From Candidatus Aldehydirespirator sp. (GTDB lineage Bacteria; Actinomycetota; Acidimicrobiia; Acidimicrobiales; Aldehydirespiratoraceae): DNA of 64,000 nucleotides. The translations under genes and the position numbers were made by a program. Positions 9,326-62,829 of this stretch are shown here, piece by piece. The notes under the pieces were generated by a model. It had not been told where the DNA came from. It searched no databases and saw nothing but the letters and a program-made list of their open reading frames with translations. The stretch covers positions 2,380,322-2,444,321 of the forward strand of contig OZ241894.1 of NCBI GenBank assembly GCA_965203575.1, written 5' to 3'. Position 1 is the first letter of the stretch. Each line of letters opens with the position of its first letter.

Positions 9326-10218
9326 CAGCGCTGGACCTTGTCCAACTTGGGAACGAAGGGTGTCCGCATCTGCGTCCAGAACCCGGTCGGATAGTCGCGG
9401 TTGATGAGCCCCAGATCGCCTACCTCCCGCTCGGGGGGCAGGAACCGCGTCCCGAACAGCACATCCCACACGATGAGGTTGTTCCCGTAGTTGCTGTTGG
9501 ATTCCGCGATCACTTCCGAGTGGTGCCAGCGGTGCAGCTCGGGGCCGCTGATGACGTAGTTGAGCGGACCCAGCCGCACGTCGCAGTTCGAGTGCTGGAA
9601 GAAGCCGTTCACTGCGTAGAACACGAAGTATGAGGCCAGCACCTCCCTCCCCACCCCCATCACGGCGAAGGGCAAGGTGTCGAGCGCGAGTTGCACCGCC
9701 TTCTCGAAGGGGTGGAAGCGGCCGACGTTGAGCCAGTACAGGCGGTGCGGCGAATGATGGACGGCGTGGTAGCTCCACATGAACTGGTAGCGGTGGAAGG
9801 CCCGGTGCAGCCAGTACCGGCCGAAGTCGGCGGCCAGCAGCATCATCGCCGCCTGCAGCACGACCGGGAGGCTGTGCGGCCAGATGGTGTCGACGGTCAG
9901 CCCGGCGGACCGGAGCCAGTCGGCGAGCCAGATGGTGACCGTGATCGACACCAGGTACGGCAGTGCCATCTGCACCGCCACCATGAACGCCAGGTCGGCG
10001 CCGACTTCGTTTCGATGGGGTTTCCACCACTGCCGGTAGGGGAGCGCGAGCTCGTGCCAGGTCACGAGGGCTGCGGCGACGACAGCCGCCGAGTAGGCGG
10101 CGGGCGTAACGTGCACGCCCGCCGCGGTCAGCAGGCCGAACACCGCCAAGGTGATCAGCACGACCGCCGGATATGAGATCGCGACGACTAGTTTCGCTGC
10201 TCTAGTCCTTTCGGACAC
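9325..10218 (-). CDS. fatty acid hydroxylase / sterol desaturase family membrane protein
   Basis: Histidine boxes HRAFH, HAVHHSPH and HRWHH, with several TM segments; GTG start. Confidence 0.8.
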   Translation of the reverse strand: MSERTRAAKLVVAISYPAVVLITLAVFGLLTAAGVHVTPAAYSAAVVAAALVTWHELALPYRQWWKPHRNEVGADLAFMVAVQMALPYLVSITVTIWLADWLRSAGLTVDTIWPHSLPVVLQAAMMLLAADFGRYWLHRAFHRYQFMWSYHAVHHSPHRLYWLNVGRFHPFEKAVQLALDTLPFAVMGVGREVLASYFVFYAVNGFFQHSNCDVRLGPLNYVISGPELHRWHHSEVIAESNSNYGNNLIVWDVLFGTRFLPPEREVGDLGLINRDYPTGFWTQMRTPFVPKLDKVQR

Positions 10219-47519: not shown

Positions 47520-48191
47520 TCACGCAGGTCTTCGCAAGCGTTGCCCGTGACGGAGCAGCAGAGCCGCAGCGGCCGCGATCAGCGACGCCGCTGCCAGGAC
47601 TTGCGGTCCGCAGCCGGTGGATGCCGCGGGGGCACGCTCGCGGGTTTGTTTGCTGTGCCGGTGATGGCGGCTTTCGGCCGAGTCGCCGTGTTCGATCAAT
47701 TCCTGTAGCCGCTCTTTGCGGTCCCAGGACTTGTCCCGGAGTTGTTGGACGGTGCTGCGGAGGTAGCCGTGCTCGGAGGCGTCGGCGAGCGCCATCAGTT
47801 CGACGTTCTCGTGCAGGCCGGCGATGGTGAGGTTGGCCGACCCGACCAGGAAGGCCTGCGGGGTTCCGGCATTGTTGCAGGCCGCCCACACCTTGAGGTG
47901 GGCCTCGGAGCGTCCCTGGTTGGAGCGGCCGGTGCGGTACCAGTTGAGCACGGTCACATTGCCCCGCTGGACGAAGTCGAGCGCAGCACGCCGGTCGGCA
48001 TGGGTGGCATGCGCGAAGTTGCGGCTCTTCATGTCGCCGATGAGCAGTGTCACCGGCCGGCCGCGGGAGCGCTTCGCGAGCCAGACGATTCCCTTCACGC
48101 TCGCCGATCCCACGCACACCACCAGCGGCCCGCTCGGATGCGCTGCCAGGAAGCGCTCCACCCGGTCCGCCGCAGTGTCGCCGAGAGCCAC
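47520..48191 (-). CDS. phospholipase D-family (single HKD) nuclease-like protein with hydrophobic C-terminus
   Basis: HLKVWAACNNAGTPQAFLVGSANLT is an H-x-K...GSxN HKD-type motif (the canonical Asp position is not conserved). One copy only, as in Nuc/BfiI-type nucleases. C-terminal VLAAASLIAAAAALLL segment; GTG start. Confidence 0.65.
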   Translation of the reverse strand: MALGDTAADRVERFLAAHPSGPLVVCVGSASVKGIVWLAKRSRGRPVTLLIGDMKSRNFAHATHADRRAALDFVQRGNVTVLNWYRTGRSNQGRSEAHLKVWAACNNAGTPQAFLVGSANLTIAGLHENVELMALADASEHGYLRSTVQQLRDKSWDRKERLQELIEHGDSAESRHHRHSKQTRERAPAASTGCGPQVLAAASLIAAAAALLLRHGQRLRRPA

Positions 48192-48395: not shown

Positions 48396-49322
48396 ATGGA
48401 CAGGTTGTGGACGGACGACGACGAATCGAATCCAGTTGACGATTGGGTCGAGAGGGTCACGTCCATAGGGCGGTTCAAGAGCAGGGACAAGGACAAGCGC
48501 GCCCCCTACAAGCCGTTGTTGCTGCTGTGGATGATCGGTCGCTTGGCTGGGGGGCTGCCGGGCCGTGTGTCGTTCCGGGAGGCGGAGGAGGACCTGCAGC
48601 GGCTGCTGAACAAGCACCCTGTGGGCAAGTCGAAGCCGAAGGTCGAGAATCCGTTCGTGTACCTCGCAAGCGACCCGAATCTCTGGCGGGTTGAGGATTC
48701 GGGCGGCGGCAATGTGGCCCGCATGGAGCGGCGCAAGAAGATGAGCCCGCCTTTCCTGCGGGCGGAGGCGACCGGCGCGCTCGCGCCCGAGTTCGAGCTG
48801 GCGCTGCGAGATCCGAACGTGAGATCCCGTGTCGTGAACGCCCTGCTTCGGATGGAGTTCCCCGATTCGCAGCACGAGGAAGTCCTGCAGGATGTGAACC
48901 TCGGTCATGTGGTGGCGGTCGCGCCGGCACCCCGTGATCCGAAGTTCAGGATCACGGTGCTGCGGGCCTACGAGGATCGATGCTCGTTCTGCGGATACGA
49001 CCTGCGTCTCGGCGGCTCGCCGGTGGGCATCGATGCCGCCCATGTGCAGATGCACAGAAAGGGAGGGCCCAACCGCATCGAGAACGGGATCGCGCTCTGC
49101 GTGCAGCATCACCGGCTGTTCGACGCGGGCGCGCTCGGCCTGAGCCAGGATCATCGGATCCTGGTGAGCGAGGACTTGAATCTGAGCGACCATGATTCGG
49201 CCGCTCGCATCAAGAGCCTCGTCGGCGAGCGGATGCGCACACCCCTGCGCCGGTACAGCCTCCCGGCCTCCGAGCACATCGACTGGCACACCAAGAACCT
49301 CTTCAAACACCCCGCCCGCTAG
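48396..49322 (+). CDS. HNH endonuclease with N-terminal SBD-like (phosphorothioate-DNA-binding type) domain
   Basis: C-terminal CSFCGYDLRL...IDAAHVQMHRKGGPNRIENGIALCVQHHRLFDAGAL (HNH). N-terminal RAPYKPLLLLWMIGRL..., ENPFVYLASDPNLWRVED and ALLRMEFPDSQHEEVLQDVNL resemble the family I recall as ScoMcrA-type sulfur-binding-domain HNH enzymes. Confidence 0.65.
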   Translation: MDRLWTDDDESNPVDDWVERVTSIGRFKSRDKDKRAPYKPLLLLWMIGRLAGGLPGRVSFREAEEDLQRLLNKHPVGKSKPKVENPFVYLASDPNLWRVEDSGGGNVARMERRKKMSPPFLRAEATGALAPEFELALRDPNVRSRVVNALLRMEFPDSQHEEVLQDVNLGHVVAVAPAPRDPKFRITVLRAYEDRCSFCGYDLRLGGSPVGIDAAHVQMHRKGGPNRIENGIALCVQHHRLFDAGALGLSQDHRILVSEDLNLSDHDSAARIKSLVGERMRTPLRRYSLPASEHIDWHTKNLFKHPAR

Positions 49323-49646: not shown

Positions 49647-49989
49647 AGCGATCGAGAGGAAGCAAGTCGTCGTTCGCTATGTTGTTGTCGGCTTCTTCGA
49701 GGTCGGCCATCGCTTCCGGGTCGTTGAGCAGGGCCAGGGTCTCGAGGGCGCCCTCGGGATCGTTCCAGTCCAGTTCGGGATGCTGTGATCGCAGTCGGCG
49801 CGCGGAAGCAGCGTCCAGATCCTTCTCGCCCAGCACCGCCGGACGGTCCGCGAGGGTCGCCTCGGGCCTAGTGGCGCCGATGGGTCCCGAGTGCGCCGGT
49901 TGGTCCACGTCCCGATCGTAACTCAGGACCGCGACGGCACCCGCCACTCCGCCACCGCAGAGACGGCCGCGCACTACCAGTTTCGTCAA
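49630..49989 (-). CDS. putative Phd/YefM-like antitoxin (start uncertain)
   Basis: C-terminal ...ETLALLNDPEAMADLEEA... is typical of Phd/YefM antitoxins; overlaps the toxin start by 17 nt. The track start is a TTG overlapping the SNF2 stop; GTG 49908 is an alternative. The N-terminal half is atypical. Confidence 0.4.
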   Translation of the reverse strand: MTKLVVRGRLCGGGVAGAVAVLSYDRDVDQPAHSGPIGATRPEATLADRPAVLGEKDLDAASARRLRSQHPELDWNDPEGALETLALLNDPEAMADLEEADNNIANDDLLPLDRYAPPL

Positions 49990-51548
49990 GGAGCTAGGAG
50001 TTCACGAACTGCGTCAGGACGGTGCTGGAGGGCGTCGATGAGCTGGTCAAACGTCATCTCCTTGCGGTCCAGGAGAGGCTGAAGGCGGTCCTCGACGGTA
50101 TCGGCGCAAGTCAGGTAGTGAACGATGACCGGCTTGGTCTGGCCGATCCGCACCACGCGGTCGACGGCCTGCGAGTTGGTCGACGGGTTCCACCAGCGGT
50201 TGACGAAGATCACCCGGTTGGCCTCGGTGAGGGTGAGGCCCTCGCTGGCGACCCGCGTTGAGGCCAGCAGCACCCAGCAGTCGGGATGGGTCTTGAACCG
50301 CGCCACCGAACGCCTTCGTTGATCGAGCGGCTGCTCTCCGGTCAGCATGGCGGCGATGTTGCCATGGGCGGCGACTAGCCGTTTCTGTAGGTGCCGCAGC
50401 GGGTCGAGCATGTACGAGAACACGACCGTCTTGCACCCGTCGGCCATCGCGGACTCGGCGAGCTCGACAGCACGGTCGAGCTTGGCACTCGCGCCCGTCT
50501 CGGGATCGATGTCGCAGATTGATCGCAGCCGGTTGAACAGGGCCAGGTACCCCTCCTCGGAGCGACGGCCCATGGACGACAGGGCGGCGCTGTAGGCACT
50601 CCGCTGCGCGCCGTGAAGTCGGACCTTCTCGACGTGCTCGGTCGCTGCTGGCAGTTCCGGCAGAACGAGATCCTTGGTGCGGCGCAGCAGGTAGGGCCGG
50701 ACCCGGGAGCGCAGCGCGTCGATTCCGTGACGGTGGTCATCGATGGCGAATCGGCGGGGTTCGAGCAGTGACAGCAGGCAGGCAAGATCCTGCGAGTCGC
50801 GCTCCACGGGGGTACCGGTGAGGGCCCACACCCGCGGTGCGGCTATCCGGCGCATCGCCTGGTGAGCGAGCGACTCAGCCTTGCGGAGGCGGTGTGCCTC
50901 GTCGGCGACGATCAGGTCGGGCGGCTGGCCTGCAAGATCGTCCCAGAGCCCGCGCAGGTCTTCGTAGCTGGCTAGAAGGACATGTGCTCGGGCCACGGCG
51001 CCGCGCCAGTGCGCCGGGGTGAAGGTGCGGTTGGTGAACTCCAACCGTTGAGCGATGAGTTCGGGCGCCCACTTGTCGACTTCAGCTAGCCAGTTCGCAA
51101 GCAGTGTCCGGGGTGCGATGACGAGACACGACTCGATGCGGCCGTATCGGTACAGTCGCCTAATCGCAGCGATCACCTGAATGGTCTTGCCCAGCCCCAT
51201 GTCGTCCGCGAGGATCGCCTTGCGATTCTGCAGCAGCCAAGCAACGCCTTTGCGCTGGAACGGGTAGAGATCGTCGCGCACACCCGGCGGCAACAGGAGC
51301 GGCAGAACCCGGCGTAGCCTGCGATCACAGTTGCGCTCATACCCAGGCCGCGGATCGAACGCCAAGGCCAGAGAGTCGGGCGCTACTGCTCGTAGGCGGC
51401 GCGCCAAGCCGCCGTCCCACCTGACCAGTGACTCCGCCGCTTTGTGCAGTCGAGCGCTGCCGGACGATGCCTCAGGGGAGCACGCGATCTCGAACCGATT
51501 GACGTCTTCGGAGGCCGTTACCGATGATGAGATCTGTCGCGAGTCCAT
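49986..51548 (-). CDS. SNF2-family helicase/ATPase
   Basis: DMGLGKTIQ (motif I), DEAHRLRK (II), LTGTPVERD (III), and ...NPSTNSQAVDRVVRIGQTKPV (VI, QxxDRxxRIGQ). Confidence 0.9.
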   Translation of the reverse strand: MDSRQISSSVTASEDVNRFEIACSPEASSGSARLHKAAESLVRWDGGLARRLRAVAPDSLALAFDPRPGYERNCDRRLRRVLPLLLPPGVRDDLYPFQRKGVAWLLQNRKAILADDMGLGKTIQVIAAIRRLYRYGRIESCLVIAPRTLLANWLAEVDKWAPELIAQRLEFTNRTFTPAHWRGAVARAHVLLASYEDLRGLWDDLAGQPPDLIVADEAHRLRKAESLAHQAMRRIAAPRVWALTGTPVERDSQDLACLLSLLEPRRFAIDDHRHGIDALRSRVRPYLLRRTKDLVLPELPAATEHVEKVRLHGAQRSAYSAALSSMGRRSEEGYLALFNRLRSICDIDPETGASAKLDRAVELAESAMADGCKTVVFSYMLDPLRHLQKRLVAAHGNIAAMLTGEQPLDQRRRSVARFKTHPDCWVLLASTRVASEGLTLTEANRVIFVNRWWNPSTNSQAVDRVVRIGQTKPVIVHYLTCADTVEDRLQPLLDRKEMTFDQLIDALQHRPDAVRELLAP

Positions 51549-51601: not shown

Positions 51602-53017
51602 TCAGCCAACCACTCCCGCTTCGACTTCAAGCCACAATGAATCGGCCTCGGCTGCTGCGGAAGCCGGAAGATAGGCGTACCAGAGGCTGCGCAGCCCACC
51701 CGTTCCGCTGATCTCCTCCTCGGTCAACGGGTCGACGCCGCATTGCCAGCGAACAATGCGCTCCATCAACTGCATGCGCTTCTTGCGTTCCTCGTTGACG
51801 ATTCGCCAGGACGCGGAGGGATCATCTGTCGGTACCAACATGATGTACTTCCATGGTGGGAGGTGGGCATCCCAACTGATCTGGCTCAGCGGATAGAGCG
51901 CCTCGCAGGCTTGCTCGACTGTCATGGGTTCTCGTGACATCGTGTCAGGCATGACTGAGTCGTCAAGTAGGGCCCTTGCCAGATCCGCCACCATTTGTTG
52001 AACCACCGGCCAGAAGAGTACGCAGTCCTGTGATGCTTCGGGGTCGTCTCGCTGCTCAGGAGGCCGGTGATCTCGCATCTGTCTGCCATCTTCACTAATG
52101 ATTGGCAGGGTTTCAATCAGAGCCTCCCAGTACGTGAATACCTCTACCTCTAAAGCATCGATCTCCTCATCCGAGGGACGGAACTTCTTGTAGACTTGCA
52201 GCTGCTCCTGGTTGGCGCCCCAACCCGTGTTGCGTCGTTGTCTGCTCGCCAGCAGTCGAACATTGAGTTCGTACAGAACCTCTAGCGTAGTGAAGAACGG
52301 GTGACTGATTCCAAGGTTCTTGCCAGGCTCCATCCGTATGCGGCCACTGTCGAACTCCGATTCACTGAAGCTGCTGAAGAATGGGTGTTGGGAAACGAGT
52401 CGTCGAGTGACGATAGCTAAGGCGTCGTCTTCATCCATGATGATGTTGTCGTATTGTGACATCGCCTTTGCATATCGATTCAAATGGCCAAACAGTCGCC
52501 TATATCGCACAATGAAATTCGAGGTCTCCTCGAGCTGCTGAGGAGTCACAATGAGTACGCTCACTTCCTCATCACGAAAATGCTCAGGTGGCCTGAAGTC
52601 GGTCGTGTGGTCCAGGAGACTGCGGATTGCTGCGAGACGGTGCTGCCCGTCGAGCGCGTAGTAGTTCTCCGTGCCGTCGAAGGTGAGCACGCCGAAGGCG
52701 TCAGTCAACCGTCCTTTTCCTAGCAACTCGAACTTCGGGTCTTCCTCAAGGCTGACTGGGTGCCACTTGGGGTCGCCTCCGAGAGCTGCGACGACGATGG
52801 CCCCAAAGAACCGGTCGTCATGTCGGGCAAGGTATCTGGCGATCTCGCCCGTGGCGCGGTTCTTGTTGAGGTTGCGCTGAATGGCATCTGACAATTGGGA
52901 GGCACCGTGGATCTCTTCCGCGTAGCGGATGTTCTGAGCGATCTCTACCATCGACATTCGTACGAGATAGTATTGCCAGCGCCCCATTCGGGCTTGCACG
53001 GCGGGATAGATTTGCAC
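51602..53017 (-). CDS. DGQHR-domain (DndB-like / ParB-fold) protein
   Basis: ...NYYALDGQHRLAAIRSL... DGQHR signature preceded by QRNLNKNRATGEIARYL and FFGAIVVA. GTG start with aggtg RBS. Markedly lower GC than neighbours. Confidence 0.8.
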   Translation of the reverse strand: MQIYPAVQARMGRWQYYLVRMSMVEIAQNIRYAEEIHGASQLSDAIQRNLNKNRATGEIARYLARHDDRFFGAIVVAALGGDPKWHPVSLEEDPKFELLGKGRLTDAFGVLTFDGTENYYALDGQHRLAAIRSLLDHTTDFRPPEHFRDEEVSVLIVTPQQLEETSNFIVRYRRLFGHLNRYAKAMSQYDNIIMDEDDALAIVTRRLVSQHPFFSSFSESEFDSGRIRMEPGKNLGISHPFFTTLEVLYELNVRLLASRQRRNTGWGANQEQLQVYKKFRPSDEEIDALEVEVFTYWEALIETLPIISEDGRQMRDHRPPEQRDDPEASQDCVLFWPVVQQMVADLARALLDDSVMPDTMSREPMTVEQACEALYPLSQISWDAHLPPWKYIMLVPTDDPSASWRIVNEERKKRMQLMERIVRWQCGVDPLTEEEISGTGGLRSLWYAYLPASAAAEADSLWLEVEAGVVG

Positions 53018-53037: not shown

Positions 53038-53514
53038 CTAGGCGGGGACTGCCTGCTTGATTCGTCCTGATACCGGTTGTGCTGATGGGATCACTCGGTT
53101 CGCGGGTGGGTCCAACACAGTCACGAGAATGTGCTCTGTTTGGTTGAGCCAGTTACTCGACCTCGTCGTGGCATTCTCAGGTACTCGGGTGTATGAGAAG
53201 CGCAGGCGTCCGAATATCGAGCGGAACTGCTTGATACGTTCGTTTTGTGGGTTCGGCGCAGCGTGTTGCCAGAAGCGCCGACGTAGGTTCTTGGTTTGGC
53301 CGACGTACAACACACCCGAGACTTCACTCGGAAGCGAGTAGATGTCTGACAGGATCGTTGGAGAAACATGAAGTATGTAGATTCCTCTTGCTTGTGGCAC
53401 CGCTGAGTCGAACAGCGTGTCCAACCAGGTCGAGTGCCAGTCGGTGCCTTCCAGCGCAGAGATGACGCGGCTCCAAGCGTCGGCGCTTAGGGATAGCCCT
53501 CTAGATCCTGTCAT
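53038..53514 (-). CDS. small GIY-YIG-like nuclease-domain protein
   Basis: GIYILHV...VLYVGQTKNLRRRFWQH...NQTEHIL...N: GIY, YVG, Arg, Glu and Asn elements in the order of GIY-YIG domains, though the GIY-to-YVG spacing is longer than usual. The start overlaps the upstream stop by 14 nt. Confidence 0.55.
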   Translation of the reverse strand: MTGSRGLSLSADAWSRVISALEGTDWHSTWLDTLFDSAVPQARGIYILHVSPTILSDIYSLPSEVSGVLYVGQTKNLRRRFWQHAAPNPQNERIKQFRSIFGRLRFSYTRVPENATTRSSNWLNQTEHILVTVLDPPANRVIPSAQPVSGRIKQAVPA

Positions 53515-56071
53515 GTCCCTGGATGCTCACTGATTTGGGTGCAGGTTCACCGGATTCCTTGAATCGAGCCGCCAGCGGGGCGGCGATGGTGATGCCGCCG
53601 ATGGTGGGAGGCAGTTGCTGGAAGGAAGTAGGCGTCCCAGCGTGGAGTGGCGAGCCTTTGGTCGGTAGCGGGTTCTCGGGTCTCATCGCCAGACCGAAGG
53701 TGACTTCCGAGGGATTGTGAATGGTGAGGCTCACACTGGCACCTTCATTGATTCCGAGTGCTCGCAGCGCCGGGCCCAGACGACCGATCTCGGGCCCGTG
53801 CATCGAGGTCTTGCGCCAGATGACTGAGATGTCCTGACAGCCGTGCGGTGAGCGGACGGCAGCTGTGGTCTTGGTTCCGAAGTAGCAACCCAGCGCGGCC
53901 GCGACGGACGGTGGAACGCTGTGAAGGCTGTAGCCGTCGAGGTGCCGGTCGTACACTGAGAACGACCAGTACGGGTCGTCGTTGTCGTCGCGTCCGTCGA
54001 TCACGTCGTCGAGGCGGCCGACATCGATTCCGGTGCCGTCAGCCTCACTCACCCAGCCGTGCTCCACTCGGAACGCGGGCGTGTTCAAGTACGCCCAGAC
54101 GCTTCCCTCGTTCACTCCGAAGAGGCGGGGAAGCTCGTCAAGAACGCGGTTGAGGCGGGTTGATCCTCCGTCCTCGTTGATGCGCTGCACGATCTCGGCG
54201 GGAATGCCCTCGTAGATGTCGTCTATCCACTCCCGCAGGCCCCAGCGGTGCTTGTCAGCTCGGGCGACTGAGGGGATGTTCGACAGTGCGCCGGCCACCT
54301 GTCGTTCGGACAGGCTGGACTCCTGGGCGAGTTCTGCCTTGGTGGCGGGCGAGCCGATCTTGAGCAGAGCAGCCTTGACCCGGGCTCGAACCGTAGCTCG
54401 GGGCGCGACGTGATCGAACAGGCAGTGCCATCCGATCCAGCGTGTGAGCAGCTCTGAGTGGTCGTGCCACTCGGGGGCGAGCGCACTCCGTAGCCGATCG
54501 GTGGAAATCAGGCCAGCATCGTCTACGAGCTCGTCGACAGCGCCCTTCAGTGCCTCAGCAGCCTCTACAGCCGCAGGGCTGAGGCAGAGTCCCTCGCGGC
54601 ACTCGTAGCCGAGCATGGCGCCTAGCATTCTGCGAGCCACGAGAAGGGCTTGCTGCGCCACCTCGTCTTCGGGCTTAGGAAGTAGCTCAGTCGTCGTAGT
54701 CTCGGTCTCGAGAACTGTCGTCACTTCACCGAGACGCTGATAAGCGATCAATTCGAGAATCCTGAGGGCCGGACCCGCGGCATCTTCCAGTTGCTCCTGA
54801 GCCTTGCGGGCGATCTGACGAATTCGCTCTCGTGACAGTCCTACGCGCTCTGCGAGTTCCGCGAGCGTCATCGGCGAGTCCGATGCAACACGTTCGAGCA
54901 CAGCTAGCCGCTCAATATCGGTCATCTGCGCCAGCGTTGCGCTGACCATCTCGACCGCTCGATCAGTGACCGTGGGGGCATCGATCCCCAGCGGCAGACC
55001 ATCCAGCCCAGCGTCCGCTTCAGCTGCCGCGATCAGATCCGATAGATCCAGCCGGAGCAGATCCCCGAAGGTCGTGGCCCCTCGGAATTCAGCGGCAGCG
55101 GCAGCGATCAGCTCGACCGCGTCGGAATGCAGGACCGCTTCGGGAATTGTTCGGTGCTGAAACGTGACCTCAGCGTGCGCTGAGGCTTCGGCGGTCTGGG
55201 CCGTGCCGACTGCAGCCGCCGGCCATTCGAAGTTCTCGGCTGCCTCGAGTACACACATCAGGTCAAGTAGCGACGCGATCCCAAAGCTGGGCAGACGCAT
55301 CAACTGCCCGAGCGTTGCCTCGGAGAGCGCCCCGCTAGTCAAGCCGGCGCGAAGACAATTGCGTGTCCGGTTCGCAAGCGGCAGGCGGTCAAGTTCGTCG
55401 ACGTCCAAGTGGGGCGGGAGTACCTTGAGACCCTCGGGCGGCAGCATTCTCATGGCCATGTCACGCAGCAACCAGGCCGACACAGCCTGGACGGGCTCGT
55501 TGTAGTGCTCCCAGAAGCGTGCCAGGTCCCGAACATGCCGAGTCGCCGGGTAGGCGCTCGTGAACTCCCGCGGGAGCGTCTTGTGACCATGAGACACCAG
55601 ATACCAGCGCGGTAGAAGGGGGGTGGGCGGGCTGCCCCAAGGTGCTGGCGGGTCGCTGGATGCAATGGAGGGCAAGTCGTCCGCAGGAACGTCGAAATGC
55701 TGAGGCTCAGCGGTCGGCTCACGATTCCTTGAGGCCCCATTCAGCCGCAGCGCGACGCGTCGCCGGCCGGTGACGACTAGATCGACCGACTGTTCGGAGC
55801 AGGCCCCGATGTTCTTCAGAGGCTCGGCGATACTGAGTACGACCGTTCGTGGCGGATCGCCCTCTTCCAAGCAGACCGTCAGTTTGCGGCAACCCATAGG
55901 ATCCTCGACCGCGACGCGAGTGAGCGCGCCGGGCTTGCAGCCGAGTTGGGCGGCGACCTCCTTGGGGAAGGCGACCCGACGGTTGTCCTGAAGGAGGGCG
56001 TCGGTTACTCGGAACGTCCAGGCTGGATTGCCGTCGGTATCCCTCCGCGTTGATGCGACCGCGCTTCTCAT
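53501..56071 (-). CDS. 856-aa multi-HTH protein: related N- and C-terminal ~90-aa domains, RpoA-alphaCTD-like HhH, sigma-70 region-4-like HTH, winged-helix segment
   Basis: ATG 56071 forms an ATGA overlap with the sspD-like stop. NRTRNCLRAGLTSGALSEATLGQLMRLPSFGIASLLDL (alpha-CTD-like). MTLAELAERVGLSRERIRQIARKAQEQL (sigma r4-like). Terminal domains share W(T/S)FxVxD...(F/V)PxxVAAxLGC..G..T..AV..P.GC. The track's extra 121 N-terminal codons overlap sspD out of frame and are rejected. Confidence 0.7.
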   Translation of the reverse strand: MRSAVASTRRDTDGNPAWTFRVTDALLQDNRRVAFPKEVAAQLGCKPGALTRVAVEDPMGCRKLTVCLEEGDPPRTVVLSIAEPLKNIGACSEQSVDLVVTGRRRVALRLNGASRNREPTAEPQHFDVPADDLPSIASSDPPAPWGSPPTPLLPRWYLVSHGHKTLPREFTSAYPATRHVRDLARFWEHYNEPVQAVSAWLLRDMAMRMLPPEGLKVLPPHLDVDELDRLPLANRTRNCLRAGLTSGALSEATLGQLMRLPSFGIASLLDLMCVLEAAENFEWPAAAVGTAQTAEASAHAEVTFQHRTIPEAVLHSDAVELIAAAAAEFRGATTFGDLLRLDLSDLIAAAEADAGLDGLPLGIDAPTVTDRAVEMVSATLAQMTDIERLAVLERVASDSPMTLAELAERVGLSRERIRQIARKAQEQLEDAAGPALRILELIAYQRLGEVTTVLETETTTTELLPKPEDEVAQQALLVARRMLGAMLGYECREGLCLSPAAVEAAEALKGAVDELVDDAGLISTDRLRSALAPEWHDHSELLTRWIGWHCLFDHVAPRATVRARVKAALLKIGSPATKAELAQESSLSERQVAGALSNIPSVARADKHRWGLREWIDDIYEGIPAEIVQRINEDGGSTRLNRVLDELPRLFGVNEGSVWAYLNTPAFRVEHGWVSEADGTGIDVGRLDDVIDGRDDNDDPYWSFSVYDRHLDGYSLHSVPPSVAAALGCYFGTKTTAAVRSPHGCQDISVIWRKTSMHGPEIGRLGPALRALGINEGASVSLTIHNPSEVTFGLAMRPENPLPTKGSPLHAGTPTSFQQLPPTIGGITIAAPLAARFKESGEPAPKSVSIQGHDRI

Positions 56072-56925
56072 AGGGCGCAGACTGTGCAGGGTTCGGTGTC
56101 GTCTTCTTCGTTGAAGGCGTCGGCTAGGGCTTCGATCAGGGGGAGGTTGGCCCTGGTCTTGCTGGCGCGGGCCATGGCGGTCTCGTGGCGTTCGAGGATC
56201 TGGTCGCGGCGGTTGCGGAGCTGGACAAGGGTCTCGCCGCCGGACCAGGTGTACTGGCGGCCTCGCATGGCTCGGTCGCCGAAGTCGGCGTCGCCGTCGA
56301 CGCCGGCGTCCTGGAGGACCTTCTGCTCGATGGCCACCGCCCGCTCGAACAGGTCCGGGTGGCGCTCGGCGAGGCCGATCCACTCGGCCTTGCGCTGGTA
56401 GAAGCAGAAATAGCAGCCCGAGCGGGTCCGCCACTCGTAGTAGGCGGGCAGGCCGATCCCGGCATCGTCTAGGAGCCTCAGCACCTTCGCATGGTCGATG
56501 CCGTCCTCCACGAACGGGAAGCGGGTCTTGATGTTGGGCTTGGTGGAGACGTAGCCCTTGCGGTTCGACTCGTCCGCCCGGATCGCCACGTACGACACCG
56601 CCGGGGCGTCACCGATCCACTCCTCGATCGGCTTGATCTTCATGTTCTTGGTGCACCACCGCATCTGCGGCGACGGCAGCGCCCCCCTGAACACCTCGAA
56701 CCAGTGGTCGAAGCCCCGCGACGCGTTGAGCCTGACGATCGGCCGGCCCAGGATCACCTCCAGGCGGGTCAAGTACTCGTAGGTCTCGGGCAGCTCCGCA
56801 CCGGTGTCGCAGAAGAAGTACTCCATCTCCGGCACGCGGTCCCGCATATACACCGCCAAGGCGCTGGAGTCCTTCCCGCCCGAGATCCCGCAGATGTGGC
56901 GCACCGGCGCCTCCGGCTCACCCAC
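56068..56925 (-). CDS. sspD: PP-loop ATP pyrophosphatase, PAPS-reductase family (SspD/DndC-like)
   Basis: ICGISGGKDSSAL (SGGxDS PP-loop); 285 aa (short, SspD-like rather than full DndC); 8-nt overlap with the upstream ATPase gene. Confidence 0.75.
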   Translation of the reverse strand: MGEPEAPVRHICGISGGKDSSALAVYMRDRVPEMEYFFCDTGAELPETYEYLTRLEVILGRPIVRLNASRGFDHWFEVFRGALPSPQMRWCTKNMKIKPIEEWIGDAPAVSYVAIRADESNRKGYVSTKPNIKTRFPFVEDGIDHAKVLRLLDDAGIGLPAYYEWRTRSGCYFCFYQRKAEWIGLAERHPDLFERAVAIEQKVLQDAGVDGDADFGDRAMRGRQYTWSGGETLVQLRNRRDQILERHETAMARASKTRANLPLIEALADAFNEEDDTEPCTVCAL

Positions 56926-59900
56926 CGGCCACCCTCCTTCGCGCCGCGCCGACCGGGCTCTCGTCAGCGGGAGCCGAGCTGAGGTCGCTGGCTCGGGACT
57001 CGGGCAGCAGGCGCTCGCTCAGCAGCGCCAGGAGGCTCTGGTGGGCGGTCAGGGCCGAGCCCGTGATCTGTGCCAGATCGGCCAGCACCTCTTCCAGCGC
57101 GTCCTCCAGCTCGGGTCGGCGCCTGCCGTCGATGCCCACCAGGCGGATGTACTCGCTTCCGTCGGAGCGGGTGACGGTCACGCGCAGCGCGTCGAACGGG
57201 CCCCTGCCGTCGGCACGGCGCTCCGCGTGCAGGGCGACCAGCCGATGGAACGCCGCCAGTCTCTCGGGCAGCTCGCGGTCGAAGCGCAGCCGGTCGTCGT
57301 CGGTCCATTCCGCAGGGGCCTTGCGGGCCACGACAGTGGCGACCGCCGCCATCCAGGCCGCGTCCGACTCGACGCCGTCGTTGGCCAGGGCGAGCACGAA
57401 CGCCCTTACCTCGGGGTCGAGGACCTCGTCGCCGAGCAGAGCGGCCTCGCCCGTCACCGGCATCCGGCTGCCCGCTCCGCAAGCGTCGAGCAGCGACTCC
57501 ATCAGACCGTCCAAGAGTCGATCCAGGCTCGACTCCAGCTCGGCCAGAGCGGCTGCGACCGCCCTCGCGAATTCGGCTGCGAACTCACAACCGGTCGCGT
57601 CCGCAGCCACGGGGCGGAAGCCCAGCGCTCGGGGCAGGTCGGTGAACAGCAACTCGTCGGGCTCGACTGCTTCGGTCAGAGCGTCCCGCACGGCTCGCGA
57701 CTCGGCGCTCACGCTGCTCGTGCGGCGTGCGTAGTTCTCGAGTCGGCTGATCCGCAGGACAAGGCTGGTGACCACGGCGAGAACATTCGCCACTCGTCGT
57801 TTGCCCCCTCCGATCCGGTGCTCAGCGCGTGTGCGAGCCAGTGCAGGCTGCGAGTGATCCCCGGCGTCCACCGAGAGTCCCAACTGCTCGGTGAGAGCCT
57901 CCACGACCATGAGCCGCCCGCCGCTGGCGTTGGCGAAGTGCTTGACATCGAAGTGGCCCGGATTGCGCACCATCCGCTCGGAGACCTCGGGTGACAGAAC
58001 CGGCTTGAACGTTCCGTGCTCGTAGATGGCGACCTCGTCGCGGAAGGCCAGCAGACCCGCAGTGACGAAGACGGGTACCACCGCAGCCTTCATGCCGACA
58101 GGGGGCGAACGCAGCGCGGCGTGGACGCTGTTCAGGTTGATCCGCCGGTCGGTCGAGCGCCGGAACTCGCCCTCGAGGATCTCCCAAGCGGGCTTGAGCG
58201 TCTCATCGGCGGGCGGTCCGAAGGACATGGTGCCGCCGCGGGGATCGACGGCGTGAAGCCCGGTCCGCAGCAGGAACGCTCGATACATAGCCGTCTCCGG
58301 GCCGTATCCCTCGAATCCCAGATCGGCGATGCCGGACTCGCCGCGTTCGATCATGGCTTCCAGGAGCAGGCGGCGCGACTTGGCTCCCTGGGAGGTGAGT
58401 TCGCTCCGGTTGAGCATCTCATTGCCAACCACGGGGGTGGACGGGTAGGCGATGTCCGCGGCCGATGACAGGGCGGCGCTGCCCCGCCCGCCGGCCAGTT
58501 CGGTTGGGCCTGCGCCGTCCTCGCCCCCCAGCAGGATCCAACGGCAGGATTCGGCGCCGAACGTGTCGGCCAGGGCCTGATCGAAGGCGACTCGGGTCTG
58601 CGCCAGCCGCTCGCCCAACTCGCGCCGCGCCACCTGGTCCTCGGCTACCGCGGGGTCGTCGAGCACCGAAGCCACTGCGGCGATCTCCCGGGCGGCCGCG
58701 TCGAGCGCCGACACATCCCGGGGCAGCGCCGCCACCACCGGCTTGGACCCGTCCACGGATTGGGCGACGGTCGGCGGGCGGCCCGAAGGGTCGACAACGA
58801 GGAGCGCCTCGCCGTCGTAGGGGGAGAACGGCTCGGGAGCCGTGGCCTGCTCGCCCGCTTCGGCATAACGCCGGCGGAAGACGCGCAACACATCGTGCTC
58901 CGCGCTGTGGCGCGCCGCCACGACCGGCTCCGGCCGGTCGGTCTCCGCCACCATCCCAGCGAGCGGCCTGCGCTGCATTCTCTGACGGGCGGAGTCGAGG
59001 AGCAGACCGACGTCGACGTCGCTGCCCTGCCATATCCGGTACTCGTCGGCGAAGTCCCGGAAAGTGACGATCCCCATGCTCTCCAGATCGGCGAGAGCGG
59101 CGTGGGCGCCCCTGCCGGACATCTCCAGGACCTGCCGGGACGCCCGGATGGTCCCCGTCGTGGACACCAGGTTCAACAGAGCGACGGACTTGGCCGTGCG
59201 GGCCTGCGACGGCGTGAGGCCATGGGTGTCGCGCAGCCGGGTGGCGACCTCACTCCAGCGGCTCGACTGGCGCGCCGAGGAGATGCTGAGGGCGCCGCTC
59301 GCTACGAAGTAGTCGTACACCGCTTCGAGGCCAAGGGACGGCAGCGGCCCCCTCGCCGGAAGGTTCGCAGCGCTGAGGAACGACAGGACGCCCGCAGGGT
59401 GCGGGCCGGCGAGGAAGGAGAAGAGCGTTCGTTCGTGCTGGCCGTAGCGGCTGCACAATTCGGGCAGCACGAGCGCCGCCAGCGGGTGAAGCGGGTAGCA
59501 GGCGGCCAGGACGGTCGGGTCGGCGAGGTCCGCGATGCCCAAGGCACGCATCTTCCGGGCGTGCGAGCGCGCCCAGCGGTCGATGCGGGTCCGGAGGTGT
59601 TCGTCGCGGACGTCGAACACGGTGCCGATGAGGGATCGGGTCTGCCCGGCCGAGTCCACGAAGGACACGTCCTCGAAACGGCCCTGCACCTTGGCCCACT
59701 CACGGCGCTGAGCGCTGTCGGCGCTGGCCAGGCAGTCGTCGAGGGACACGTGCTGCAGAGTGACCACGAAGATCGGCAGTCCCGATCCCTGGCCGGCCTC
59801 CGCGAGACGTTGCAGCAGATACGGATCCGCGCCGTGTCCGTCACGAACGGCTTCTAGGTTCTTGCCGAACTCGTCGATGATCAGCAGCAGCGGCGCGTCC

Positions 59901-60477
59901 TCGGCCAGCCGGCGCGCGATATCAACCAGGATCGAGGGTGAAGGGCCGCCTCCCCGGATGTCGTCGTGAGCGGTGTCCTCCAGGGAGCGGATCAGCTCTG
60001 GAGCGTCACCGAGGCAATCCGCAGGGGGGGGGTCTGGTCGTCGCGGAGAACGGCGGATTGCAGGGCGCGCAGCACTGTGCGGGCCAGCGGCTCGCGCTCC
60101 GCGGTGACGAGCGCGCGGGTAAAGCCGCGGTTCAGGGTTCCGTGGCGCCGGTGGGCCCTCCGGATCAGGTCGCCCGATGCGTCCGACGCGTCGTCGATGA
60201 TCCCGAGGGCTGAGCGCCGGAGCTGCGAGCGGCCGCCGAAGGCCGCGTCCAGCAGCAGGGCGAGCGACGACTTACCCGATCCGTACGGACCGGTGAGCGA
60301 CCAGGCACCGCCCGCGGGTCCCGTCGCTGCGGTAGTTGCGATGCGCTCGACCACATCGAGGCCTCGGGCGGTGAGGACGTATCCGTCCAGCGGTTCGGGC
60401 CGGGCGAGGTCGCGCTCGAGGTTCGCCGAGCGGGCGAACCGGCCGCTGACCGAGATGGCGTCACCAAGGGTCGGCAT
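56918..60477 (-). pseudogene. sspC: ~1187-aa P-loop NTPase (SspC-like) split by a frameshift in a C9 (G9 on + strand) tract
   Basis: 5' part 60477..59992 carries GPYGSGKSS (Walker A). The frame shifts at 60024-60032. By hand translation the downstream frame is open from at least 60059 and reads ...PPPADCLGDAPELIRSLEDTAHDDIRGGGPSPSILVDIARRLAEDAPLLLIIDEFGKNLE... (Walker B), joining the 949-aa ORF. One extra C would fuse both parts. Confidence 0.75.
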
Positions 60478-61532
60478 CAGCCGGCTCCCGCCAGGGCGTG
60501 CAGGCTCCGGAGGCTGTCTGTGGAGTTGCGGCCTGCGCCGAGGTCCTCGAGAAGGTTGTCGTCCACCGCCAGATCCCCGATGCAGCCGGCGCACACTTCC
60601 GTCGCCGACGAGCCGTAGTAGTCGTTCAGGACCGCCGTCGCGATCTCTGCCGGGTCGCCCGAGCAGGCGAAGTGCCACGCCCCGGCCGGGGATGCGAGGC
60701 TCAGCCCTTCCGTTCGATCCACGGCAGGCTTGACCGCGGCCAGGAGCTCCGTCTCGTTCAGTTTGAACGCTCGGCCGGGCGCTCCGGGCTCGTGGGCCAG
60801 GCGGCTGAGCGTGACGGTCCTGCCGCCGCTGCCGGTGCGTTCGATGTAGTCGAGCACGGCGTGGACGGCAACCTCGGACGGCAGGGTCGGCTTGGGTCCC
60901 AGCGTGAAGCGAGGCAGTCCCGTTGCGGGAGACCGCCGCAGCAGGTTCAGTTCCCGCAGCGGGCAGTCCAGCAGGTCGTCCACGCTGATGCGGCGGGAAT
61001 GCTCCGACGGCGCATAGGTGCGCAGCAGGGCGCCGACGTCCTTCCTGACCGACGACTCGTGCGGCGCGGCCCAGTCCGCGGAGGCCTCCAGCTGCGTGGA
61101 GACCGCCCCGGCGAGGTCGGTGTCGCTGAACTCGACCGCGTTGAACTCGTTGAACGCGAGCCACCAGACCGGCAGACGCGAGGGCGGCGCCAGCAGCAGC
61201 CAGTGCAACAGCCAGAGCGTTCCGGGATCCTCCATGTAGGGGTCCCAGCCCTGCTCACCGAAGAGCGCGTGGCCGCGGCGGGTGGGCACGAACTGTGGCG
61301 CCCTGCGGTTCGGGGAGTGGGGATCCTCAGTGATGACCTTGGCGGCGAGGCCCCAGAAGCGGATGGCGCGCACCATGTTCTTGCCCACGCCTATTACCAC
61401 CGGCGCGTCCGGCCGCCCGAACGTGTAAGGATCGGCGGCTGCGACCGCATAGGCCTTGCGGAACCAGCCGAAGCGGGGGTGGAAGGTCTCGTGCCGGGCG
61501 AATGAGCGAACGGCAGCGTCCGGCAACCTCAT
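60477..61532 (-). CDS. sspB: DUF4007-like protein (SspB-like)
   Basis: N-terminal MRLPDAAVRSFARHETFHPRFGWFRKAY matches the HETF..R.GW..K signature I recall for DUF4007/SspB. ATG 61532 has a gggag RBS 8 nt upstream (GTG 61571 alternative). Its stop shares a base with the sspC-like ATG. Confidence 0.65.
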   Translation of the reverse strand: MRLPDAAVRSFARHETFHPRFGWFRKAYAVAAADPYTFGRPDAPVVIGVGKNMVRAIRFWGLAAKVITEDPHSPNRRAPQFVPTRRGHALFGEQGWDPYMEDPGTLWLLHWLLLAPPSRLPVWWLAFNEFNAVEFSDTDLAGAVSTQLEASADWAAPHESSVRKDVGALLRTYAPSEHSRRISVDDLLDCPLRELNLLRRSPATGLPRFTLGPKPTLPSEVAVHAVLDYIERTGSGGRTVTLSRLAHEPGAPGRAFKLNETELLAAVKPAVDRTEGLSLASPAGAWHFACSGDPAEIATAVLNDYYGSSATEVCAGCIGDLAVDDNLLEDLGAGRNSTDSLRSLHALAGAG

Positions 61533-61680
61533 TCGCCGGCTCCCGCATTCACGTCGATGAAGATACCGCACCCGTGTGACAGCGACCTGGGTCCTGCAAG
61601 CGAGTCCGTCAGACGGTCTGCCCTACACCCAGTTGGGCATCGGCATCACTGGCGCGACGCGGCGGGCTTGGTTCTGGCGA

Positions 61681-62829
61681 TCAGGTCAGGGCGCGGACAC
61701 GCTTGACGGCAGCGGTGGCGCTCTCTACTGCGGCGTCGACATCAGCCTCGGTGGTGAAGCGGCCGAGACTGAAGCGCACCGACTCGAAGGCGGTCTCATG
61801 GGACCGGCCCATGGCCACGAGAACCTCCGACGGCTCGATCGATCCTGCGCTGCAGGCACTGCCGATGGACACTGCGACAGGGTCCATGTTGGCCATGACC
61901 GCCTCGGCGTCGGCGCCCACGAAGCACAGATTGGCTGTGTTGGGCAGTCGCCTCGACGGGTCGCCGTTCTGCAGCACGCGGGGGAGGCTGGCCTGCAGTT
62001 CGGACACGAGGCGGTCGCGCAGCGCTCCTACAGTCTCGGACTCCCGTTCGCGCTCGTCAGCGGCTATACGGGCGGCGGTACCAAGGCCGACGATGCCAGC
62101 CACGTTGAGCGACCCCGAGCGCAGGCCTCGCTCGTGGCCGCCGCCGTGGAGCAGGGCTTCGAGTTGCCTGAGGCTGTGCCGGGTGCCGACCAATGCGCCC
62201 ACCCCGCCCGGGCCGCAGATCTTGTGCCCGCTCAGCGACACCAGGTCCACGCCCAGCGCCTCCATGTCGAACGGCAGGCGTCCCGCCATCTGGGTGGCGT
62301 CACAGTGGAACAGCGCGCCCGCAGCGTGTACCCGCTCCGCGATCTCACCCGCCGGGTTCAGAACGCCGGTCTCACTGTTGGCTGCCATGACCGACACAAG
62401 CACAACATCGTCGCCGACCATCTCTTCCACGGTGGCCGGCTCGACGAAGCCACCTGCGGTCACCTCGATCACATCCAGCTTCACCAGGCCATAGTCGGCG
62501 AGCCACCTCGCCGTACCTGCCACCGAAGCGTGCTCTACCGCGGAGACGAGCATCCTTTGCCTGTTTTGGGGGGCGGCCTCAAGGGCACCCTGCAGAGCCA
62601 GGTTGTTGGCCTCGGTCGCTCCCGAAGTGAACACGACCCCCGATGCGCGCCCGCCCACCAGAGCCGCTACGTGTTCACGGGCATCGTCCACCGCGGCCGC
62701 CTGTCTGCGTCCGAAGCGATGGACTGACGAGGCGTTGCCGACCGAGTCGGTCAGGATCGGCATCATCGCCTCCGCCACCCGCGGGTCGAGCGGAGACGAT
62801 GCGTTGTAGTCGAGATAGACCTCCCTCAC
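61681..62829 (-). CDS. sspA: class V cysteine desulfurase (SspA/DndA/IscS-like)
   Basis: SLSGHKICGP (PLP Lys), GSACSAGS (persulfide Cys) and HGGGHERGLRSG. GTG start with ggaggtggc RBS. Confidence 0.8.
   Translation of the reverse strand: MREVYLDYNASSPLDPRVAEAMMPILTDSVGNASSVHRFGRRQAAAVDDAREHVAALVGGRASGVVFTSGATEANNLALQGALEAAPQNRQRMLVSAVEHASVAGTARWLADYGLVKLDVIEVTAGGFVEPATVEEMVGDDVVLVSVMAANSETGVLNPAGEIAERVHAAGALFHCDATQMAGRLPFDMEALGVDLVSLSGHKICGPGGVGALVGTRHSLRQLEALLHGGGHERGLRSGSLNVAGIVGLGTAARIAADERERESETVGALRDRLVSELQASLPRVLQNGDPSRRLPNTANLCFVGADAEAVMANMDPVAVSIGSACSAGSIEPSEVLVAMGRSHETAFESVRFSLGRFTTEADVDAAVESATAAVKRVRALT

Follow-up and report, generated by a model that had tools for sequence, protein, structure and literature searches.

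Protein X, an 856-aa product encoded on the minus strand at 53501-56071 of a 64,000-nt stretch of contig OZ241894.1 from Candidatus Aldehydirespirator sp. (the window), is proposed to be a non-catalytic, modular DNA-recognition and adaptor subunit of phosphorothioate (PT)-linked restriction modules, a role assigned from the anatomy of the protein and from gene order with a probability of roughly 45%. X is probably a missing component of PT anti-phage systems, and the PT-based restriction-modification (R-M) cassette of the window is rated as having a previously unrecognised and widespread fifth component, made of known domain types in an unprecedented combination. An unsolved problem of PT defence is how the restriction partners distinguish own from foreign DNA when only a minority of consensus sites are sulfur-bearing. 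Because a conserved non-catalytic DNA-binding subunit heads two unrelated restriction modules, behind three modification modules, X is an obvious candidate for the targeting or licensing component that is missing.

In the proposed mechanism, the invariant and partly acidic core of X (winged helices WH3-WH4 and the C-terminal barrel) would dock on the restriction machinery or read a feature shared by every context. The variable, more basic N-terminal array, i.e. the N-terminal barrel, a domain like the RNA polymerase alpha C-terminal domain (alpha-CTD) and sigma region 4, would hold the complex on DNA using residues by which RNA polymerase reads UP and -35 elements. X may thereby pick the loading site of the nuclease and translocase, and PT marks written by SspABCD would spare host DNA.

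Domain architecture and family

The layout of X was drawn from an AlphaFold2 model built with 37 homologues (mean predicted local distance difference test score (pLDDT) 82.3), combined with domain hidden Markov models (HMMs).

53501..56071, minus strand: gene X, 856-aa multi-domain protein; stop codon 53501-53503, M1 invariant in homologues, AlphaFold2 model
55727..56047, minus strand: N-terminal B3-like pseudobarrel, aa 9-115; copy of the barrel at the C-terminus, net charge +5, confined to part of the family
Minus strand, aa 116-140 of X: disordered linker (AlphaFold2)
55436..55651, minus strand: helical domain hel1, aa 141-212; AlphaFold2 and domain HMMs, moves as a unit with the alpha-CTD-like domain
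55223..55435, minus strand: RNA polymerase alpha-CTD-like helix-hairpin-helix, aa 213-283; PDB profile search, Pfam in homologues
Minus strand, aa 282-309 of X: disordered linker (AlphaFold2)
54989..55141, minus strand: helical domain hel2, aa 311-361; AlphaFold2 and domain HMMs
54731..54976, minus strand: Sigma-70 region 4 (4.1 + 4.2), aa 366-447; recognition-helix motif S-R-E-R-I-R-Q
54392..54730, minus strand: winged-helix pair WH1-WH2, aa 448-560; acidic (net -11), fast-evolving, tandem winged-helix fold matches
54002..54391, minus strand: winged-helix pair WH3-WH4, aa 561-690; best-conserved segment in the family, WH3 basic (+5), WH4 acidic (-9)
53672..54001, minus strand: C-terminal B3-like pseudobarrel, aa 691-800; pLDDT 94, Foldseek; with WH3-4 the invariant family core
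53504..53671, minus strand: disordered C-terminal tail, aa 801-856; pLDDT < 50

Residues 366-447 are a genuine sigma-70 region 4. Pfam Sigma70_r4 matches X at E 2.4e-8 (33.8 bits against a cut-off of 24.1), and the family profile run against all PDB sequences reaches E 3.9e-13 to region 4 of SigB, the best 60 PDB matches listed all being sigma factors or sigma-region-4 constructs. Foldseek aligns X with region 4 of SigA at a template modelling (TM) score of 0.66-0.71, a root-mean-square deviation of ~2 A and 31-37% identity. For the alpha-CTD-like domain, a profile of residues 212-285 (23 family members, 77 positions) found RNA polymerase alpha C-terminal domains in 40/40 PDB sequence matches (best E 4.9e-5). 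Pfam RNA_pol_A_CTD directly matches two homologues, P0174 and P0121 (1.9e-8 and 1.4e-5), and has no match in the window X itself at E <= 0.01. Resemblances to sigma-70 region 4.2 and to the alpha-CTD helix-hairpin-helix had been claimed in a preliminary description made from the letters alone, as had a further winged helix after the sigma-like stretch; all three are borne out, the last by a canonical winged helix-turn-helix (HTH) at residues 561-612 of the AlphaFold2 model.

Conservation within both modules is concentrated on residues expected to contact DNA. Across 270 non-identical family domains the sigma motif [ST]-R-E-R-[IV]-R-Q is 84-94% conserved per position and its flanks drift; it aligns with RERIRQ/RERVRQ of real sigma factors, and its residues correspond to the readers of the -35 element in sigma-70 (R584, E585, R586, R588 and Q589). 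Similarly, in 214 alpha-CTD-like domains R235 (91%), N238 (86%), G264 (95%), S267 (83%) and D/E270 (95%) are retained; R235, N238, G264, S267 and D270 align to R265, N268, G296, S299 and E302 of E. coli alpha, part of its DNA-binding '265 determinant', and the equivalent of K298 is not retained in the family. Because these contact residues are strongly conserved, the two modules look like functional DNA readers, and their N-to-C order is that found on promoter DNA, where alpha-CTD and sigma region 4 sit side by side at the UP and -35 elements. X is a case of RNA polymerase promoter-recognition modules, with contact residues intact, reused outside the polymerase.

X is nevertheless rejected as a true sigma factor or alpha subunit. 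With sigma-70 factors it shares region 4.1-4.2 and the RERIRQ recognition helix, but it has no region 1.2 and no Pfam Sigma70_r2 match for region 2; a region-3-like stretch is faint and lies elsewhere in the protein, and all NCBIfam sigma models stay far below their cut-offs, the best reaching 32.9 bits where 323 are required. With RNA polymerase alpha it shares the helix-hairpin-helix and the equivalents of R265, N268, G296, S299 and E302, but the K298 equivalent is lost and the alpha N-terminal domain is missing, neither Pfam nor the PDB giving a match beyond the CTD.

The domains at the two ends of X are genuine duplicates. Residues 10-129 and 694-814 align by BLASTP with 30% identity over 121 residues (E 4e-14), the Smith-Waterman score between the termini is 111 against 25.3 +/- 4.3 in 2000 shuffles (z = 20), and profiles of the N- and C-terminal copies built from homologues align by hhalign with a probability of 99.9% (E 2.9e-31, 109 columns), in agreement with the homology of the termini suspected earlier. 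The duplication is a clade-specific elaboration in which the N-terminal barrel was added in a subset of the family. When the C-terminal barrel was modelled in isolation (pLDDT 94) and compared with the PDB by Foldseek, the first 24 matches all belonged to the B3/DNA-binding pseudobarrel superfamily, led by the LlaJI.R1 N-domain (probability 0.99, TM 0.53) and followed by the plant B3 domains of VAL1, FUS3, VRN1 and ARF, with BfiI-C lower. No sequence-profile match of the X barrels to the B3 superfamily was found. The earlier assignment to barrels of the AbrB/B3/EcoRII-N kind therefore holds at fold level (E 0.04) but not at the level of sequence profiles, and a B3/EcoRII-N-like pseudobarrel fold for the terminal domains is supported at fold level, not proven. 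Such a fold, a seven-stranded pseudobarrel with two short helices, would be common to both X terminal domains, the EcoRII N-domain, the BfiI C-domain, the LlaJI.R1 N-domain and plant B3. In EcoRII, BfiI and LlaJI.R1 it is the B3-like barrel that recognises DNA, serving as a site-recognition module for a separate catalytic or motor part; X differs in being a separate polypeptide without nuclease fusion and in having an acidic C-terminal barrel.

About four winged helices lie between sigma region 4 and the C-terminal barrel, and in Foldseek they resemble the tandem winged-helix scaffolds of UFL1/DDRGK1, SelB WH2-4 and ESCRT-II. Profile comparison detected no internal duplication between WH1-2 and WH3-4. 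The latter pair carries the motif RADKxRWGLxEWIDDxYEGIPAEIxQRIxEDGG, and hhalign of WH3-4 against the B. subtilis RpoE delta N-domain gave a probability of 26% (E 7e-4) with the WGLxxW wing motif aligned. The possible resemblance of WH3 to HARE-HTH is a motif-level lead; Pfam HARE-HTH had no match in 17 members at E <= 1 and there was no PDB sequence match. Net charge varies among the modules: the N-terminal barrel and WH3 are basic, WH1-2, WH4 and the C-terminal barrel (-3) are acidic, and the barrels average +3.5 for the N copy and -2.7 for the C copy. Because the charge is uneven, part of X is likelier to bind protein than DNA, protein binding being the more likely function of the acidic modules. 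No enzyme domain was found in X with Pfam, NCBIfam, PADLOC, PHROGs or PDB sequence and fold searches; it is made only of nucleic-acid- and protein-binding modules.

X belongs to a large dark family. A word-indexed search gave 77 relatives, all unnamed, and an exhaustive profile search of 1.84 billion cluster representatives (50% identity clusters) returned 1126 at E <= 1e-30, so that a family of ~1100 such clusters is defined for which Pfam, NCBIfam and PADLOC hold no model beyond the sigma region 4 HTH. The sole PADLOC match of X is to mad1, over a 26-residue HTH stretch (E 2e-4), and the X of locus L002 has none. A phage or viral origin is rejected, as no homologue was found in INPHARED phages or IMG/VR contigs. 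Comparison of 84 locus-encoded and 221 database members identifies WH3-WH4 plus the C-terminal barrel as the invariant core, with a minimal form of 311 aa (L073). Nearly all members have sigma region 4 and WH1-2, the hel1 plus alpha-CTD unit occurs in 0 to 3 copies and the N-terminal barrel in 44 of the 221 database members; sigma region 4 and alpha-CTD are both absent from L073, L076, L014 and L078. Identity across clades is 55-84% for WH3-4 vs 29-54% for sigma region 4 and WH1-2. The window N-terminal barrel is 58-66% identical to those of PbeABCD-linked relatives, the other domains of which are 32-59% identical, and this sequence pattern points to shuffling of the N-terminal barrel between clades. 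Three proteins (P0212, P0215 and P0218) consist of 4-7 tandem WH1-2/WH3-4 repeats alone, with Pfam Sigma70_r3 or DUF4777-type matches.

Gene order around X

Tblastn with the window and L002 proteins yielded 110 non-redundant X loci, most of them in genomes of sponge symbionts, drawn from exact-protein look-ups, GTDB species genomes (80), JGI metagenomes (27) and one annotated plasmid region. A restriction-type module lies directly 3' of X in 92 (89%) of the 103 loci with at least 1.5 kb of downstream sequence: PbeA(BCD), identified by PADLOC, in 73 and GIY-YIG/DGQHR(/SNF2) in 19. In a re-annotation (PMC10853773) PbeABCD becomes an HKD nuclease-SF2 helicase, a small disordered protein, a CxC ABC ATPase and a DndE cognate. 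Among 100 loci with at least 1.5 kb of upstream sequence, X is preceded on its own strand by SspD in 51 and by a PAPS-like/GHKL module in 28, three different sulfur-modification modules occurring in this position overall. No locus with enough flanking sequence combined a modification module and X without a restriction module.

In two clear cases of split loci, with modification and restriction genes on opposite strands, X heads the restriction operon: L073 has convergent modules and an operon X-GIY-DGQHR-SNF2 that begins with X, and L040 has divergent ones and likewise begins X-PbeABCD with X. Furthermore, a neighbour-joining tree of the X core splits first by restriction type and then, inside the Pbe branch, by modification type. 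The preliminary description had tied X functionally to the GIY-YIG, DGQHR and SNF2 genes, which the gene order in 110 loci supports. It had also stressed the ATGA join to sspD; the overlap is present but is not the defining linkage, since X tracks the restriction module (mostly PbeABCD) and not SspD. SspD linkage as the key association is accordingly rejected on the split loci and the 110-locus gene order.

Two cassette types absent from defence-system catalogues are thereby described, SspABCD-X-GIY-YIG/DGQHR/SNF2 and (PAPS-like/cysteine desulfurase/GHKL)-X-PbeABCD. The trio of GIY-YIG, DndB-like DGQHR and SNF2 proteins follows X in 19 loci (e.g. L001, L007-L011, L013, L029, L037, L042, L073 and L092); no PADLOC system model matches it, and it looks like an undescribed restriction-type partner of SspABCD. 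The third putative sulfur-modification module, 5' of X-PbeABCD, comprises a 445-504-aa PAPS-reductase-like protein with weak SspD/BrxP similarity and a DndA-type cysteine desulfurase, together with a GHKL-type ATPase (PADLOC candidate PDC-M33A), a PDC-M33B-like protein and, in some loci, DUF6339. It is found at L054 2065-9784, in L050, L038, L087, L100, L102, L104, L105 and L107, and in ~20 more.

The 80 species-representative genomes with X (L006-L085) span at least nine phyla, and many are metagenome-assembled genomes with sponge-symbiont names (Poriferisocius, Poriferisodalis, Spongiisociaceae) or sponge-study bin labels, which suggests that the cassette has spread horizontally within sponge microbiomes. 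One small clade outside PT islands has a ~445-aa X in a uracil-DNA glycosylase (UDG) - X - glyoxalase-like arrangement conserved on two unrelated contigs (L086 4850-7767; L090 9241-11833). Distant homologues occur on mycobacterial plasmids, where that of L091 (NZ_CP126902.1) lies beside UDG, DUF499, DUF1156 and helicase genes, and a few X loci are orphans. UDG-family genes recur beside these non-PT relatives.

Known systems and alternative roles

The architecture of X was not described in the PT, BREX and sponge-symbiont literature searched, and two reappraisals of PT and BREX systems by Rakesh, Aravind and Krishnan do not mention it (PMC10853773; PMC12839542). The statement in the preliminary description that no known PT component is built in this way stands, there being no Pfam, NCBIfam or PADLOC family either. 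The nearest parallels are DndG (of DndFGH), SspB and BrxA, likewise non-catalytic proteins with tandem winged helices inside PT or BREX cassettes, whose proposed role is the scanning or recognition of target DNA on behalf of a motor-nuclease partner (PMC10853773; PMC12839542); the triple winged HTH shared by DndG, SspB and FokI was proposed as a target-recognition unit (PMC10853773). X alone among these has sigma region 4, alpha-CTD-like and B3-like barrel domains, and it accompanies PbeABCD or GIY-YIG/DGQHR/SNF2, whereas DndG goes with DndFH. In BREX, BrxL has a sigma-HTH-like domain and PglW (type 2) an alpha-CTD-like domain followed by three winged HTH domains, a central segment like residues 212-690 of X (PMC12839542). 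PglW also has a kinase, a nuclease and an inactive STAND ATPase, none of which is present in X, while in X a true sigma region 4 separates the alpha-CTD-like domain from the winged helices; the PADLOC PglW model does not match X.

Several identities were rejected. The idea that X might sense the PT state finds no backing in any of the tests made. Its winged helices lack profile similarity to the ScoMcrA-type sulfur-binding domain (SBD): hhalign of the WH1-2, WH3-4 and barrel profiles against 20 SBD-HNH proteins of the same loci gave probabilities <= 0.6%, Pfam DNA-SBD_ScoMcrA has no match in X, and an SBD-type PT reader is thus rejected at profile level. Kinship with the SspB triple winged HTH is rejected on hhalign probabilities <= 3% against 45 SspB sequences. 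X is also not SspE, SspF, SspG or SspH, as domain content differs and PADLOC and NCBIfam models of SspE, SspFGH, DndFGH and PbeABCD do not match it; X has neither the Walker A motif of SspF nor the FtsK-like character of SspH (PMC8092258).

A number of observations weigh against an adaptor subunit that reads DNA. The 107 scan loci (L006-L085, L092-L118) were found with a single WH4 peptide pattern, which biases the sample to that subfamily, and ~7% of loci lie outside PT islands. WH1-2, WH4 and the C-terminal barrel are acidic, so that a wholly DNA-binding protein is too simple a picture; the B3 match of this barrel is a fold-level one, with E 0.036 at best, TM 0.45-0.53 and ~10% identity; and hhalign finds no similarity of X to the PT-reading SBD or to SspB. 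In L014, a close relative of the window cassette, X has only 370 aa (9030-10142; winged-helix units and barrel), lacking the N-terminal barrel, alpha-CTD and sigma region 4, although gene order is kept down to the SBD-HNH and PLD-like genes. The experimentally studied PbeABCD system reportedly works without an X-like protein. The same is true of SspABCD, including in heterologous hosts (PMC8092258). Because these studied systems work without it, X is an accessory rather than a universal requirement.

The main rival, unlikely but to be taken seriously, is that X controls transcription of the restriction genes in the manner of the C proteins of type II R-M systems, binding -35/UP-like promoter DNA so that nuclease and translocase expression is delayed or limited until host DNA has been modified. 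The genuine sigma region 4 with its intact -35 motif and the retained alpha-CTD-like DNA-contact set would suit such a role. C proteins sit at the head of the restriction operon, as X does in the split loci; both are DNA-binding proteins encoded directly 5' of, and co-transcribed with, a restriction gene, an analogy of gene order. Stand-alone short relatives are found in non-defence neighbourhoods, where an ordinary regulator could equally be expected, and DndB is a known regulator within Dnd systems. However, C proteins are Xre-type dimers of roughly 80-100 aa, whereas X has unrelated domains and 8-10 times that length. At 650-1200 aa, with up to three alpha-CTD units, two barrels and four winged helices, it exceeds any known controller. 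Its sigma region 4 and alpha-CTD are dispensable (absent from L073, L076, L014 and L078), leaving WH3-4 and the barrel as the core, and in the window X sits in mid-operon with translational coupling to both neighbours. X also occurs with two unrelated restriction and three modification modules, and therefore with unrelated promoters.

The polymerase-like modules allow two further ideas. It is rather improbable, though it would carry PT immunity beyond PT sites to targeting via promoter recognition, that X is a polymerase-free, single-polypeptide promoter reader whose alpha-CTD/sigma region 4 pair, its UP-element and -35 contact residues under strong selection, loads the restriction motor-nuclease at strong promoters on incoming DNA, or else a bait for phage proteins that hijack those surfaces. 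Less probable again is a sensor or decoy in which sigma region 4 and alpha-CTD mimic the surfaces hit by AsiA/ORF67-type anti-sigma factors and by alpha-CTD ADP-ribosylation, binding or modification by a phage protein then releasing or activating the restriction module. The surface motifs of both domains are far more conserved than the rest, but DNA binding explains the conserved residues equally well. In structure searches the top matches show sigma region 4 bound by WhiB-type and phage ORF67 proteins. Variation, repetition and shuffling of the N-terminal units are what arms-race interfaces would show, and a sigma-like protein has a precedent in defence in MzaA, known here by family name only. 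Against this, a restriction module tied to a modification module requires no extra trigger, L073 and L076 keep the gene context without either domain, and there is no known phage partner.

Slimmer still is the chance that X acts on the modification side, as a target-selection or loading factor that decides the PT sites of SspABCD or other sulfur modules. Its start codon is joined to sspD here and SspD lies 5' of X in 51/100 loci, and the N-terminal barrel next to sspD is 58-66% identical between cassettes with different restriction but similar Ssp modules. Yet in L073 and L040 X goes with the restriction operon, and it stands behind three unrelated modification modules and is never found, in loci with enough flank, with a modification module but no restriction module; moreover, SspABCD modifies DNA in heterologous hosts without X (PMC8092258).

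The cassette in the window

X is translationally coupled, on both sides, in the middle of the operon sspB-C-D / X / GIY-YIG / DGQHR / SNF2. Its start codon (ATG, 56071-56069) overlaps the sspD stop as ATGA, and its 3' end overlaps the start of the GIY-YIG gene by 14 nt. The gene is read from the minus strand, plus-strand translation of 53501-56071 giving many stops. The mechanical open reading frame (ORF) extends back to a GTG at 56434, adding 121 codons before the ATG; this 977-aa version is rejected, as the extra codons are an Arg/Pro-rich read-through of sspD in another frame and M1 is invariant in the 37-sequence homologue alignment. The neighbouring genes are:

61681..62829, minus strand: sspA / cysteine desulfurase, by homology to loci whose equivalent gene carries Pfam Aminotran_5
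60477..61571, minus strand: sspB (DUF4007), Pfam / PADLOC
56918..60477, minus strand: sspC, frameshifted at a C-run near 60023-60031, PADLOC
56068..56925, minus strand: sspD (PAPS-reductase-type), PADLOC SspD E 1e-109; stop overlaps X start
53038..53514, minus strand: GIY-YIG nuclease gene, Pfam; start overlaps X end
51602..53017, minus strand: DndB-like DGQHR (ParB-superfamily) protein, Pfam, PADLOC and NCBIfam
49986..51548, minus strand: SNF2-family helicase, Pfam, PADLOC and NCBIfam
48396..49322, plus strand: SBD-HNH PT-dependent restriction endonuclease (ScoMcrA type), NF045808, E 3.6e-65
47520..48191, minus strand: PLD-like ORF beside the SBD-HNH gene

The SBD-HNH (type IV) gene and the PLD-like ORF adjoin the PT-writing operon and are kept beside many related cassettes, a paradoxical arrangement in which a PT-cutting enzyme stands beside a PT writer. 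In sspC (59965-60477) a break near 60023-60031 separates residues 1-145 in frame -2 from residues 172-1124 in frame -1 at a run of ~9 C; a sequencing error, phase variation and a true split of the gene are all conceivable causes. The sspC of the relative L001 is likewise split, into 162 + 984 aa.

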